A stretch of 28,831 bases of DNA from a virus. Lineage: Duplodnaviria > Heunggongvirae > Uroviricota > Caudoviricetes. Shown one piece after another: positions 6,001 to 9,000 of this stretch; the first letter of the stretch is position 1, and each line of letters begins with the position of its first letter. Made by a program: the position numbers. The stretch lies in IMG/VR virus record IMGVR_UViG_2534681660_000015. The stretch is one strand, 5' to 3'.

Positions 6001-9000
6001 AAGCCCTGACTGTTCCCGCAGTTGGGGCTTCAACTTTCTGCTCTATCAGTTATATCTTTCCCTTCATATACTTCACCTATATTGCTAATGCTGGCAGAAC
6101 ATCCAAGATGCTTGTATCTTATGATGTCCAACACGCAGTCACTACACAGCATCCGACCTGTTTCTTTAGAGTAAATGTATGTTTGATCAGCGTCTGATTC
6201 GCTAATGCCGCAGAAACAACATTCTTTACTCATACCGTTATCCCCTCTCTCTTCAGGCTGTCCATCACCCGTTTAATTACTTCTGCACTAAATGAGCGAC
6301 ACTCCTCCTTTGCTTTTTCTTCAAGAATTTTTTCTAGCTTCTCTGGCATACGCAGTGTTTTAACCTTCATTGTATCCTCCGTTGTATGTGGTACGCATAC
6401 ATAGTATTTAGGTACGCATTGATAGTCAATAGATACCTACATATCCTGTGGTAAAAAATTATTCAGGATGCGCCGATGTCTGATCGTAAGTACAAAAACC
6501 CTCAAGTGAATCTGAGGCTTCCTGTAGAGATAAAGGAACGTCTTATTGAACTGGCTGAGGCTAATTCTCGTTCATTAAATGCTGAGATGGTCGCGGCACT
6601 TGAAGCGTGGACCGAAAAAAATAAACACATTCAAGCACTAGACCTTGCAACTATAGCATCACGATTGATAGATCTTGAACACGATGTTGAGACGCTAAAG
6701 ACCATGTATGGTAAGGATAAATAAATATGACAGATACCAAAGTGAACTTCAGAGAAACCATCTTCAAGGACTCAAGTGATGCTGTAAATGAGTATGCTGA
6801 TGGATTTGCTTACTCGTCTTTTGGGGATGTCGGAGCAAGATTTGGTTCAATAGCATTTTTTAAGCATGTTTCAGACTGGGTTAATAATGAGGAGATTCAG
6901 CCAGTTAGATACCAAATTGCCAACATTCGCATGAGTGAAAATCAACTTCTTGAACTGGCTAAGTATATAGTTTCTCAACACGAAGAATCAAAAAAATTAA
7001 GCTGACAGAGCCATGATTACTTTTCCTGCCGTAAATGCTGATCATGCAGCGGAGAAAAAGAGAACTCTTGGTCGTATGGGGTCGACAGGTGGCATAGGAG
7101 AAAAGTCCAATGCTTCGCCTCCAGTTACCAAGAATGATATAACCAAAAACAATAATATCGCTTATCTTGGAAAACAATACACTGAGGAGCATGCTATGGG
7201 CAGCCCATCAAGAGAAGAGATTGACGCGAAGCTTGGTCAAAACAAAGCAGAAATTGAGTTAATATCTGCTAACATGCGCGCTGAAATTTCAGCTTTCAGA
7301 GAATTCCAATCTAAGCAATTTACAGCTATGAATCAGTCCCTTAATGAAATTAAGGGACAGATATTCGCTAGCAATGGCGAAGTTGCAGGGCTCAAAGGTC
7401 AAATTGATGGCATTAAAACATCCATGACCGCGACCCAATGGCTCGTTGGTGCGGTTCTCGCTATGCTTGCGGTAATCATAACGCTTCCGCAGATTCAATC
7501 TTACTTCAAGGTTTCTGAGCCGACTGCGAAGGAAGCCGCTAGTGAAACCCATGATACCAAAATAAAGCAGTGATCTTACCAATAAAACCTGGGAGGACAA
7601 CATGAAGCAATGGCTCATCATAATTGCTGTTTTTTTGCTCATTTACACTGTTTTCCCAACATTAAAAGCACCAATGCAAATAATTTCACTAGCAATAATT
7701 GCGATTGGTGCTTTCATTGCTGTAGCCGTACTTGTGTTTAAGGTTTTAAAGTTTTTAGTTTGGCTATCAAAAGATGATGGATGCAAAGTTCATCAAGAAA
7801 AAGAAGGCAAAATAACCAAAGTTGACTAACTGTCACTAGCGAGCCATGTAATAATCCCCGTGCGGGCAATGGTTTTTGCTTCATCTGTTGATAAGGTTTT
7901 CTCCCATCTCTTAAATGCCCCAGATTGCATCAGTTTCCTTTCTATTACGCGTCTCACTTCTGCTCTGTCTACTGGTGCGTTTTGCAGGCGAAATAGCATT
8001 GATTTAAACTCAGGAGAAGACAGTAGAGCATCAGCAGCCTTTATCCTGCTTGTTTTCCCTGACATCAATGCGGACGTTATCACCCCTGTTGCGCCTACAC
8101 CAGGAAGACCAGATAAGCTTGTAATACCTTCCGCCGCAGCAGCTTTTGAGGCTATTCCATAAATTTTTGCGAGACTACCCTTTTCTTTCAGAAAGTTATT
8201 AACTTGCTGATCCACAAGACTACTAGCATACTGCTTACCAGTATTGAGTCTATTCATAGCCTTAGCTGCTTGATAAATCGTATCAAGGCGCTTTGATGCA
8301 TCTGTGCCAATAGCATCACGGAGAGCCTTCATATTGGCCCCATTGCGTGACATTCCGTTATACCATTTTACAAATCCATCAACTCCTAATTGCTGACCAG
8401 GTGATTTGGCATAGCTGGTAAATGCTTTATTCATTGAGGTGAGCGCAACTTCCTGCCGCATATCCTTTGGAATCGACTTCATTAATTGCCTAAAGTCGCC
8501 ACCGTTTCCTTTTGCCATATTAACAACAGCACTTTCAACTTTTGGAATTGCTGATTGCTGAAGTTTTCTACCCAAGACGGTTACAGCATCATCTTCAATG
8601 GATTTTCGTTTTTTTACCAACTCCTTACCAAGCGTCCATAATTCCCCTGCGCCATATTTTTCTGCGACAGCCTGTTGGTCATCTGTTATGGCTGCATATA
8701 ACTTTTTAAGAACACCTGTTTCTTCATCCTTGAATGGACCAGAGCCTTTGCCAATAGCTTGTCCAACCTGCTTTCTAGCGAGATCTAAACGCCCATACGT
8801 TGGCAAGGTGTTTGGATCAAGTCGGTTCAATGTCCGCTTCATTATTGGAGATAATTCATCAATTCCACCTATGTCATCAGCAAAATCCTCTAAAAAATTC
8901 AATGTATTAGTTGCCTCAATCCGGTCTCTTACAGGAACCTTTTCGGCAATTTTGTTGTAGATGTTATCTGACTGATTTTGTAATGATGAAATGGTTTTAT

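Follow-up and report, generated by a model that had tools for sequence, protein, structure and literature searches.

Here we show that a 67-codon open reading frame, ORF67 (6030..6233, minus strand; 67 aa), sits in an exchange slot with precise boundaries within the immI region of a P22-like (Lederbergvirus) prophage present in the window, i.e. the whole 28,831-nucleotide stretch of viral DNA that was analysed. The left edge of the slot is formed by the last arc codons, which harbour the Shine-Dalgarno sequence of the cargo gene and the ATGA overlap, and on the right the slot is closed by a TGA fused with the terminator hairpin of sar, an antisense RNA, thereby leaving the sar/ant control region untouched. 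Thus, the classic P22 immI operon has a nucleotide-precise slot for gene exchange. Comparison with relatives indicates that ORF67 is a genuine protein-coding gene, and our best overall explanation, to which we assign a probability of about 0.55, is that of a real slot gene encoding a zinc finger with an accessory, protein-binding role.

All the parts of a P22-type immI are present in the window. The first gene of the Pant operon is arc (6230..6370, minus strand), which encodes a 46-aa ribbon-helix-helix repressor (Pfam Arc PF03869, E 2.9e-9, 37 bits against a cutoff of 20.4); its equivalent in AR_0017 is called an Arc family DNA-binding protein by RefSeq. The antirepressor gene ant (5089..5970, minus strand) encodes a 293-aa protein with Bro-N (E 5.8e-20) and P22_AR_C (E 3.6e-29) domains and is followed by a terminator-like hairpin with a T run (5052..5071, minus strand). 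The divergently transcribed mnt gene (6476..6724, plus strand) encodes an 82-aa Arc/Mnt-family repressor (Pfam Arc, E 3.1e-10), and the homologous positions in relatives carry PF11423 Repressor_Mnt. The sar antisense RNA (5969..6035, plus strand), complementary to the ant ribosome-binding site and the spacer, was recognised over its full length (1-68) by Rfam model RF00262 with 71.6 bits (gathering score 43; E 2.2e-14), and epsilon34 has sar annotated at the homologous position. A Pant-like promoter (6401..6429, minus strand; TTGACT-17-TACTAT), located where epsilon34 has Pmnt/Pant and arcO, would serve arc, ORF67 and ant. Two repeats that are probably operators overlap with it, one direct (21 nt, 6390-6431) and one inverted (18 nt, 6405-6443). 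Two further promoter-like sites were recognised as consensus matches only, namely a Pmnt-like divergent promoter (6419..6447, plus strand) and a Psar-like promoter (5933..5961, plus strand; GTGAAA-17-TATACT with an upstream TG). The latter lies within the 5' part of ant, would start sar near 5969 and corresponds in position to the annotated Psar of epsilon34. In P22, Mnt holds Pant off in the lysogen. The regulation of P22 immI has been described elsewhere (PMC2629481, PMC12111858).

Comparison with immI of P22 and epsilon34 revealed the same site, between homologues of gene 16 and the tailspike gene, and the same divergent mnt, Arc-family first gene, P22_AR_C antirepressor and full-length sar. 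The earlier note had stated that in P22 arc is followed directly by ant; epsilon34, whose annotation is based on similarity to P22, indeed has this order. In the window, the arc stop and the sar hairpin have 204 coding bases between them that epsilon34 lacks. The 67-aa frame pointed out in the earlier note is, when set against P22-type immI, a genuine insertion of a gene whose translation is coupled to that of arc. The C-terminus of arc also differs (...KREGITV in the window and ...KKEGRIGA in epsilon34), as does the N-terminal domain of Ant, which is Bro-N in the window and P22_AR_N in P22/epsilon34.

The ORF67 ATG (6233..6231) overlaps the arc TGA (6232..6230), so that both genes share ATGA; this start/stop coupling, proposed earlier, also exists in the Salmonella homologues. 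The Shine-Dalgarno sequence of ORF67, GAGAGGGG (6242..6249, minus strand), was read directly from the sequence; it lies 8 nt upstream of the ATG, within the last arc codons, and belongs to the conserved left junction AAGAGRGAGGGGNTNNNNGTRTGA, which is kept across loci whose arc genes are otherwise only about 60% identical. At the other end, the conserved right junction of the slot is the sar terminator stem (6000-6031), in which 2 nt of the ORF67 TGA are included; this TGA lies in front of the ant ATG (5970), with 59 nt in between. The earlier placement of the ant start about 60 bp downstream of the inserted frame was accurate: the ATG at 5970 is conserved among relatives and is preceded by an AGGAA Shine-Dalgarno sequence. 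The competing start at the upstream in-frame TTG (6033) was rejected, as the 63-nt extension crosses the sar terminator and changes frame among relatives, the distance from TTG to ATG being 1 nt longer in CUS-3 and 1 nt shorter in AR_0017.

The chance probability of a 67-codon open frame is about 0.03 per frame, and hence conservation rather than length was used to decide whether ORF67 is a gene. We regard it as one because divergent homologues in Salmonella prophages (68 aa, 33-36% identity, located between arc and ant) keep the slot, the 4-nt overlap with arc and the stop position, and because the sense frame is the sole frame open in every version of the region. The frame is thus conserved in relatives, whereas a lack of such conservation had been named as a sign against the gene. 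Antisense ORFs at 5946..6197 and 6022..6174 (plus strand) were ruled out, their frames holding stops in the Salmonella and Emek versions, and so was a structured RNA in place of a gene, given a fold z-score of -0.60 and sar as the only Rfam match.

Alignment of the junctions showed that the slot is empty in epsilon34, where arc ends directly at the hairpin, and that the junctions are the same in the window, Emek and Salmonella but enclose different cargo. Scanning of IMG/VR yielded 97 stretches with the same left junction, distributed over at least seven cargo families, and all complete cargo ORFs among them end with TGA at GAAGCCCC, in the sar hairpin. The arc-ant intergenic content of relatives, the comparison of which had been suggested earlier, therefore consists of a slot with one of these seven families or none. 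Three of the seven families are CxxC...CxxC fingers, while the remaining four are not zinc fingers and are unrelated to ORF67; the slot itself is thus no pointer to a ClpX-related role. ORF67 was found together with three Arc and seven Ant N-terminal clusters. Because ORF67 assorts freely with the types of both proteins, it is unlikely to have a partner that is specific to one Ant or Arc type. This assortment, together with the seven or more unrelated or only distantly related cargo ORFs between identical junctions, lends support to the previous suggestion of a hitch-hiking moron. Alternative genes or none at one position in syntenic phages is the pattern of an accessory-gene hotspot. A classical moron brings its own promoter and terminator, and here a consensus scan found neither promoter-like nor terminator-like sites within or immediately upstream of ORF67. 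With no promoter of its own, ORF67 would be expressed from Pant or by late read-through, via the ATGA coupling. Among known systems, the slot comes close to the 'ant moron' that Villafane et al. 2008 (PMC2629481) described for P22-like phages, and to the mosaic 'boundary sequences' of lambdoid phages. In contrast, the variability seen here is that of a single-gene slot inside the arc-ant operon, with both junctions nucleotide-exact and with cargo devoid of its own promoter or terminator, and we found no description of such a slot in the literature examined.

The cysteine arrangement pointed out in the earlier note is present in the ORF67 protein as C5-C6-x-C8 ... C30-x2-C33. Residues C6, F7, C8, G9, C30 and C33 are invariant across 19 alleles and homologues, and when the slot proteins ORF63 and ORF74 were added, C5, F7, C8, C30 and C33 were still invariant; C5Y alleles exist and are rare. 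H42 and C45 are not conserved among homologues. The finger comprises residues 1-40; the rest of the protein (41-67) is a variable tail whose prediction has low confidence. We infer from the sequence that residues 1-40 would bind one zinc via C5/C6, C8, C30 and C33 in a treble-clef finger. Structure models of ORF67 showed a beta-hairpin followed by a helix beginning at C30-C33, at low confidence (pLDDT about 56), and a 4-sequence alignment used as input did not raise this confidence. A zinc ribbon has two zinc knuckles, both on beta-hairpins, in a three-stranded ribbon; in both of these low-confidence models the second CxxC starts the helix and does not lie on a hairpin. The zinc-ribbon label given to ORF67 earlier therefore probably names the wrong fold: a CxxC at the helix N-terminus is the treble-clef arrangement, and the recurring family signal is that of the ClpX-type zinc-binding domain (ZBD).

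ORF67 matched phrog_7150, a family of unknown function, with an E-value of 3.4e-50. Neither ORF67 nor its Salmonella homologue matched NCBIfam or PADLOC at E up to 0.1, and no relatives were found in the GTDB representative genomes scanned. A phmmer search against 1.84 billion representative proteins returned 13 matches, one of which was a true relative (the 68-aa P0014); the other 12 were spurious, being long TPR-like or Ig-like repeat proteins that matched the low-complexity ORF67 tail. Fold searches with the ORF67 models were non-significant and did not separate the ClpX ZBD from RING or ZZ fingers. The best raw PDB match was the RNF4 RING (phmmer E 0.005), also the top Foldseek match (E 0.05), neither match being significant. 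The part common to RING/ZZ fingers (RNF4) and ORF67 is the first zinc site, i.e. C1, C2, C5 and C6 of the RING cross-brace. However, a RING needs eight ligands and two zinc ions, whereas ORF67 holds T and R at the positions of RNF4 C3 and H4, and the E2-binding context of RING fingers is absent from bacteria. A RING finger was ruled out, the second zinc site being missing and H42 and C45 not being conserved.

Judged by its sequence, the ORF67 finger is ClpX-N-domain-like, yet it stays below family thresholds. The knuckle motif CxFCG of the ClpX-type ZBD (PF06689 / PS51902) is present as C5/C6-F7-C8-G9, accompanied by C30-x2-C33. ORF67 itself gave no PF06689 match at E up to 10. Among its relatives, zf-C4_ClpX was the only or the top Pfam family for four divergent slot proteins at 10-19 bits (P0014 13.2, P0019 10.2, ORF63 12.0, ORF74 18.9), all below the Pfam gathering threshold of 27 bits for PF06689. 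When the slot family was aligned with 12 ClpX ZBD sequences using hhalign, both Cys pairs fell in register over 32 columns, with P-values of 9.6e-5 to 1.2e-4 and a probability of 54-58%. A bona fide PF06689 member of 59 aa, the stand-alone phage protein gp06 of Pantoea phage vB_PagM_AAM22 (37.9 bits), aligned with ORF67 residues 1-35 free of gaps at 43% identity, with a database-wide E-value of only 5. In UniRef, the Salmonella homologue bears the name 'ClpX-type ZB domain-containing protein'.

The ClpX ZBD (PF06689; PDB 1OVX/2DS5) and ORF67 share a C-x2-C-G knuckle whose Phe is invariant (CxFCG), a stretch of about 20 residues and a following C-x2-C-V, in a domain of about 40 residues with one zinc site, which in ORF67 is a predicted one. 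The beta-hairpin within this stretch and the helix opened by the C-x2-C-V are, for ORF67, those of the low-confidence models. F7 of the ORF67 CxFC corresponds to F16 of ClpX, a residue of the hydrophobic patch on which lambda O, SspB, RssB and trigger factor are bound (PMC7804408). The two differ in the spacer between the knuckle and the CxxC, which is 3 residues longer in ORF67, and in the helix, which is CVDLCNDII in ClpX and CVLDII in ORF67, without the third Cys motif of ClpX. ORF67 further differs in its extra invariant Cys6, in its 27-residue variable tail and in having no AAA+ module. The literature consulted held nothing relevant on a phage inhibitor of the ClpX ZBD or on ORF67. A functional tie to a ClpP-like 178-aa gene located beside mnt was rejected: this gene tracks one mnt/arc allele, is absent from the window and from most ORF67 loci, and lies in the oppositely regulated mnt transcript.

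As judged from P22 biology, ORF67 would be transcribed with arc and ant from Pant, with additional read-through from the late operon, and would be translated by coupling to arc. It would then be made in a short burst after DNA entry or loss of Mnt and remain silent in the lysogen. Slot genes in general are predicted to be switched on at the very beginning of infection and kept off in the lysogen, a timing expected of counter-defence or host-takeover effectors, and the seven cargo families may thus serve as a short, testable list of candidates. In our preferred explanation ORF67 would be an accessory protein for host takeover or counter-defence that acts on a host target through protein-protein binding, and would not be a core immI regulator. 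Mimicry of the ClpX N-domain is the most specific candidate for this activity, suggested by the resemblance in sequence, and we consider it doubtful. In such a case ORF67 may titrate adaptors or substrates that dock on the ClpX ZBD, or may pair with the ZBD itself, and ClpXP proteolysis would be altered transiently early in infection. A functional likeness to ClpX would make ORF67 a natural protein that targets adaptor-dependent ClpXP proteolysis. A wider and still less probable proposal is that ORF67 and its related fingers (ORF68, ORF63 and ORF74) are all mimics of the ClpX N-domain and that the slot is a launch site for early effectors. Such mimics, delivered by the Pant burst just as infection starts, might cap the dimer of the ClpX ZBD, or titrate adaptors of ClpX or degrons that depend on its N-domain, and the transiently reprogrammed ClpXP could let short-lived phage proteins or anti-immunity factors survive. 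Recombination in the 3' end of arc and in the sar hairpin would swap these fast-evolving early effectors.

The position of ORF67, embedded between arc and ant and coupled translationally to arc, also suggests a dedicated partner or regulator within immI, which would temper Ant through its shared P22_AR_C domain or modulate Arc or Mnt, and would tune the early burst of antirepressor. CxxC...CxxC fingers make up three of the seven cargo families, which may point to a recurring need for them in the operon, and Ant carries P22_AR_C in the loci scanned or with Pfam domains on record. We consider such a role unlikely. ORF67 accompanies seven Ant N-terminal and three Arc clusters, P22-type operons work with an empty slot, and the four other cargo families are unrelated to ORF67; moreover, in the O157:H7 prophage Sp6 ORF67 is frameshifted and ant is still annotated as intact. 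The suggestion that ORF67 is a partner of the antirepressor is thus weakened by free assortment with Ant types, with the shared C-terminal domain of Ant still a possible target. Immunity region immI of phage P1 offers a parallel, with the small ORF icd directly upstream of ant. Both icd and ORF67 are small ORFs just upstream of an antirepressor gene in an immunity operon controlled by antisense RNA. However, P1 icd is coupled to the translation of ant, while ORF67 is coupled to arc and is separated from ant by the 59-nt spacer. To our knowledge, icd has not been described as a zinc finger, and no sequence similarity of ORF67 to P1 was detected when a phage collection was searched by tblastn at E up to 10. 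The gene order reported for P1 immI is sim, c4, icd, ant1/2 (PMC6906374).

A single C4 site in about 67 aa, together with the predicted early expression, would also suit a nucleic-acid-binding finger that regulates phage or host transcription or RNA, like the C4 fingers of the Ogr/Delta type, and treble-clef fingers do occur in DNA-binding proteins, a GATA domain being among the weak Foldseek matches of ORF67. This is improbable, since both finger and tail are acidic rather than basic, with many D and E residues, no family of DNA-binding fingers in Pfam, NCBIfam or PHROG matched ORF67, and the sole recurring family signal is the ClpX ZBD, a protein-binding module. Least probable of all is that the product is irrelevant and ORF67 is a translated spacer or a decaying remnant, retained solely because translation has to proceed from arc to the sar hairpin or because two conserved recombination patches flank it. 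The hairpin is the exact end point of every complete cargo ORF, regardless of sequence; frameshifted O157:H7 alleles and an Arc-ORF67 fusion variant exist; and substitution counts in the Salmonella pair and the E. coli alleles did not reveal clear purifying selection outside the ligands. Two Salmonella alleles gave a pN of 0.081 as compared to a pS of 0.074, and the E. coli alleles tallied showed 5 non-synonymous and 3 synonymous changes. These ratios are uninformative, since the E. coli alleles are nearly identical and the Salmonella differences lie in blocks that look recombinational; with ORF67 DNA 97-100% identical across E. coli loci, selection on the protein is not measurable in that species. 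Against a spacer or remnant, the zinc ligands, F7 and G9 are kept in ORF67, ORF68 and ORF63 at 25-37% overall identity, and the Cys codons vary synonymously while the Cys residues stay. The RNA of the region has no unusual structure, as seen from the z-score given above, and a spacer is unnecessary, because epsilon34 and P22 manage without one.

Of 5426 complete E. coli genomes, 373 (about 7%) contain ORF67, and at least 1000 contigs encode exactly this protein. The gene is unannotated in the RefSeq AR_0017 and O157:H7 Sakai records inspected, as it is in phage CUS-3, where an identical ORF67 lies in a stretch annotated only as 'bsq2; boundary sequence'. CUS-3 was reported to be apparently without arc (PMC2629481). 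Both arc and ORF67 are present in CUS-3, and both are unannotated; the published inference that CUS-3-type phages lack arc is hereby corrected.

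The operon in the window was assigned from the genes and signals that flank the 67-codon Cys-rich ORF under study (ORF67, 6030..6233, minus strand, 67-aa product). Directly upstream lies arc (6230..6370, minus strand), encoding a 46-aa ribbon-helix-helix protein of the Arc family (Pfam Arc, E 2.9e-9). An ATGA tetranucleotide is common to the arc TGA (6232..6230) and the ORF67 ATG (6233..6231), and the Shine-Dalgarno sequence of ORF67, GAGAGGGG, is placed within arc, 8 nt upstream of the ATG. The antirepressor gene ant (Bro-N and P22_AR_C domains in Pfam) follows downstream, while the divergent mnt (6476..6724, plus strand), upstream, encodes a Mnt/Arc-family repressor by Pfam. 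Rfam recovered the sar antisense RNA at full length (5969..6035, plus strand; 71.6 bits vs a gathering score of 43), and consensus scans revealed Pant-like (6429..6401, minus strand), Pmnt-like (6419..6447, plus strand) and Psar-like (5933..5961, plus strand) promoters, as well as a terminator after ant (5071..5052, minus strand). The whole window is a late region of P22-like (Lederbergvirus) type. Since Arc, Mnt and antirepressor domains, sar and promoter-like sites flank ORF67, the earlier note was right in proposing an immI operon of P22 type that holds one additional gene, although one defining feature is altered, in that the intercistronic region does not directly follow arc. A 21-nt direct repeat (GGTACGCATACATAGTATTTA / GGTACGCATTGATAGTCAATA) within 6390-6443 overlaps the Pant and Pmnt hexamers, as does an 18-nt imperfect inverted repeat (6405-6422 / 6426-6443). 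These repeats are probably the operators for Arc and Mnt in this type of immI, and are unlike the arcO sequence of epsilon34/P22.

The mechanical ORF list starts ant at a TTG at 6033, with an extension that crosses the sar terminator. Single-base indels separate relatives within this TTG-to-ATG extension (+1 nt in CUS-3, -1 nt in AR_0017); the extension is therefore noncoding, and a start at 6033 was ruled out. The ATG at 5970, with AGGAA ahead of it, is the conserved start and agrees with the start annotated in each of CUS-3, Sakai and AR_0017, placing the start of ant downstream, as had been supposed.

ORF67 is demonstrably a gene. Two Salmonella prophage proteins (P0014 and P0019; 68 aa, 33-36% identical to ORF67) are encoded at this place between arc and ant, again with the 4-nt overlap, and the sense frame alone is open in every version of the stretch; the frame is thus kept in relatives, as its reading as a coding ORF had implied. 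C6, F7, C8, G9, C30 and C33 are invariant among 19 alleles and homologues, and synonymous differences between two Salmonella alleles are confined to the Cys5 and Cys8 codons. No unusual RNA structure was seen across the ORF67 region (fold z = -0.60). ORF67 belongs to PHROG family phrog_7150 (E 3.4e-50; function not assigned there), at least 1000 contigs encode exactly its protein, always under the name 'hypothetical protein', and its DNA was found in 373 of the 5426 complete E. coli genomes. Phage CUS-3 (CP000711.1) was inferred to be without arc, with ant under different control (Villafane et al. 2008, PMC2629481). Its positions 2580-2986, which correspond to 6030-6370 of the window, are annotated only as 'bsq2; boundary sequence', with neither arc nor ORF67. 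Both genes are present there, intact and unannotated, and ORF67 is identical; the absence of arc from CUS-3 is an annotation gap.

The anatomy of the slot, the arc-ant position where relatives hold different small cargo ORFs or none, was derived from an alignment of the window, epsilon34, Emek and one Salmonella locus. The arc gene of epsilon34, a phage whose annotation rests on similarity to P22, has the end ...KKEGRIGA*, with the sar terminator hairpin GAAGCCCCAACTGCGG following at once. The other three loci have the arc end ...KREG(I/L/V)xV*, sequence AAGAGAGAGGGGnTnnnnGT(A/G)TGA; in them the cargo ORF begins at the junction RTG, and the cargo TGA is fused to the same sar hairpin as in epsilon34. 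At the position of ORF67, Emek and 611R6 have a 73-aa ORF that is unrelated to it. Scanning of IMG/VR for the left junction yielded 97 stretches, and seven cargo families emerged on translation from the junction: ORF67 (26 intact and 11 frameshifted copies), ORF57 (21 copies, phrog_17642, example loci within L055-L133), ORF73 (15 copies, the Emek/611R6 type), ORF89 (13 copies, phrog_27312; a hydrophobic N-terminus by eye, then a long region that is charged and looks helical), ORF74 (7 copies, a CDFC...CNKC finger without PHROG match), ORF80 (3 copies, a weak FlbD-like match, E 1.7e-4) and ORF63 (2 copies, a CCFCG...CDSC finger matching phrog_7150, E 5.7e-8). The IMG/VR loci with other cargoes are L055-L133, for example L055, L071, L065, L060 and L064. 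Because every complete cargo ORF in the 97 stretches is ended by a TGA at the sar hairpin, the slot is, as judged from these junctions, an exchange point exact to the nucleotide. Function constrains both of its edges, on one side the 3' end of arc, which holds the cargo Shine-Dalgarno sequence, and on the other the sar terminator; these edges may act as homology patches in recombination. ORF67 was found beside Arc proteins of three clusters and Ant N-termini of seven, counts that include some contigs fetched twice and give only the qualitative result that cargo assorts freely. In prophage Sp6 of O157:H7 Sakai (L004 2060-3715), the entire mnt-arc-ORF67-ant module sits among lambda-like tail genes, with the gene for the minor tail protein on one side and that for the tail assembly protein on the other, and so the module moves between podovirus and siphovirus backbones. 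The Sp6 copy of ORF67 has a +1 T frameshift.

Pfam search of ORF67 returned no significant match. The family zf-C4_ClpX (PF06689), the zinc-binding domain (ZBD) of the ClpX N-terminus, was the sole or top Pfam match of four divergent slot proteins, all below the 27-bit cutoff (P0014, 13.2 bits; P0019, 10.2; ORF63, 12.0; ORF74, 18.9), and UniRef names P0019 'ClpX-type ZB domain-containing protein'. Alignment of the slot family with 12 aligned ClpX N-domains by hhalign placed both Cys pairs in register (P ~1e-4, probability 54-58%). The best non-self tblastn match of ORF67 in the phage collection, with a database-wide E of only 5, was gp06 of Pantoea phage AAM22, a stand-alone 59-aa bona fide PF06689 member (37.9 bits), to which residues 1-35 align without gaps at 43% identity. 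AlphaFold gave models of low confidence, with a mean pLDDT of 55-56, which agree in having a knuckle, a beta-hairpin (19-21, 28-30) and a helix from C30-x2-C33; this treble-clef arrangement, with the second CxxC starting a helix, speaks against the label 'zinc ribbon' of the earlier note. Fold searches gave treble-clef matches only, all non-significant (RNF4 and TRAF6 RING, ZZ domains, ClpX ZBD), with ClpX ZBD 2ds5_A at rank 9 (target-normalised TM 0.65). PDB sequence matches to the RNF4 RING span its first zinc site only, and a RING finger was rejected as ORF67 is without the second. Residues 1-40 are thus predicted, and quite likely, to form a single-zinc treble-clef finger of ClpX-ZBD type, and residues 41-67 are modelled, with low confidence, as a variable tail. 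ORF67 resembles ClpX-type ZBDs yet lies below the curated Pfam threshold, and may work like a stand-alone ZBD. The ClpX N-domain search also returned proteins of ~100 aa with two tandem ZBDs and no AAA+ module (P0069, P0075, P0081 and P0043, alignment A5); stand-alone ZBD proteins therefore occur outside phages as well. Most matches of a phmmer search against 1.84 billion representatives were spurious ones to repeat proteins, the GTDB scan gave no ORF67 relative, PADLOC and NCBIfam gave no ORF67 match, and we found no published study of ORF67 or of phage ClpX-ZBD mimics. ORF67 as a hypothetical protein and PHROG family, and the fact that the ant moron varies, were already known; what is new is that the slot is precisely bounded, takes one gene and has seven cargo families, that ClpX-like fingers recur among its cargoes, and that the CUS-3 annotation is corrected.

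In P22, Mnt represses Pant in the lysogen, Arc shuts Pant off after infection, ant translation is blocked by sar, and late-operon read-through occurs (PMC2629481, PMC12111858). By analogy, ORF67 would be cotranscribed with arc and ant, translated by coupling to arc, made in a burst right after DNA entry and again via late read-through, and not produced in the lysogen; sar should leave its translation unblocked because the ORF67 stop sits upstream of the sar target. This expected early timing, the slot with many alternative cargoes and the independence from Arc/Ant type lead us to favour, at a probability of about 0.55, an accessory effector of host takeover or counter-defence rather than a core immI regulator. 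Its most specific mechanistic candidate, offered tentatively, is mimicry of the ClpX N-domain, a docking site for SspB, RssB, trigger factor and lambda O that acts via a hydrophobic patch including F16 and is needed if lambda O is to be degraded (PMC7804408). F7 of ORF67, invariant throughout the slot family, is the equivalent of F16, and a free ZBD copy could titrate ClpX N-domain ligands or pair with the ClpX domain.

A partnership with Ant or Arc is rather unlikely, since cargo assorts freely, P22-type phages have an empty slot and the O157 allele is frameshifted. A nucleic-acid-binding regulator is more unlikely still. Least probable is a translated spacer or remnant. There are signs that ORF67 is weakly constrained or dispensable. 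Between two Salmonella alleles pN (0.081) is close to pS (0.074), with the changes grouped in two stretches, residues 2-19 and residues 48-64. Codons 6-7 carry a +1 T frameshift in ~304 genomes of O157:H7 and relatives (the 95-99% identity band, all sampled rows of which span 205 nt, not 204), and rare C5Y alleles exist. DNA identity among E. coli copies is 97-100%, even beside arc genes that are only ~60% identical, so selection on ORF67 within E. coli is unmeasurable. One variant from a Logan assembly (P0001, 112 aa) is an Arc-ORF67 fusion (...LKRGGDGMSKECC...) that arose through loss of 1 nt from the junction's AGAGAGGGG run, and could be real or an assembly error. The Salmonella P0014 allele (L012 5001-5207) is exactly as E. 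coli ORF67 over its first 26 nt (ATGAGTAAAGAATGTTGTTTCTGCGG) and Salmonella-type thereafter, a switch that suggests a recombination breakpoint inside the gene.

Next to mnt, AR_0017 (L005 3716-4252) and Salmonella loci (L006-L010 and L012, ~3967-4503) encode a 178-aa ClpP-fold protein (PF00574, E 2.2e-11), whose nearest models, in NCBIfam and in PHROG, describe ClpP-related head-maturation proteases. Its gene overlaps the mnt stop by 1 nt and would therefore be expressed with mnt in the lysogen, an odd placement for a prohead-protease-like gene. It is absent from the window and follows one mnt/arc allele, not ORF67, and a specific link between the two was ruled out on this distribution. In the window, mnt is followed on the plus strand by ORFs of 92 aa (6727-7005, phrog_4231), 186 aa (7013-7573, phrog_5820; by eye, coiled-coil-like in the middle and with a C-terminal segment that is hydrophobic) and 75 aa (7602-7829, phrog_7294; two hydrophobic segments by eye). 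They stand where P22 has sieA and other lysogen-expressed genes, and from this position are candidate superinfection-exclusion or lysogenic-conversion genes.
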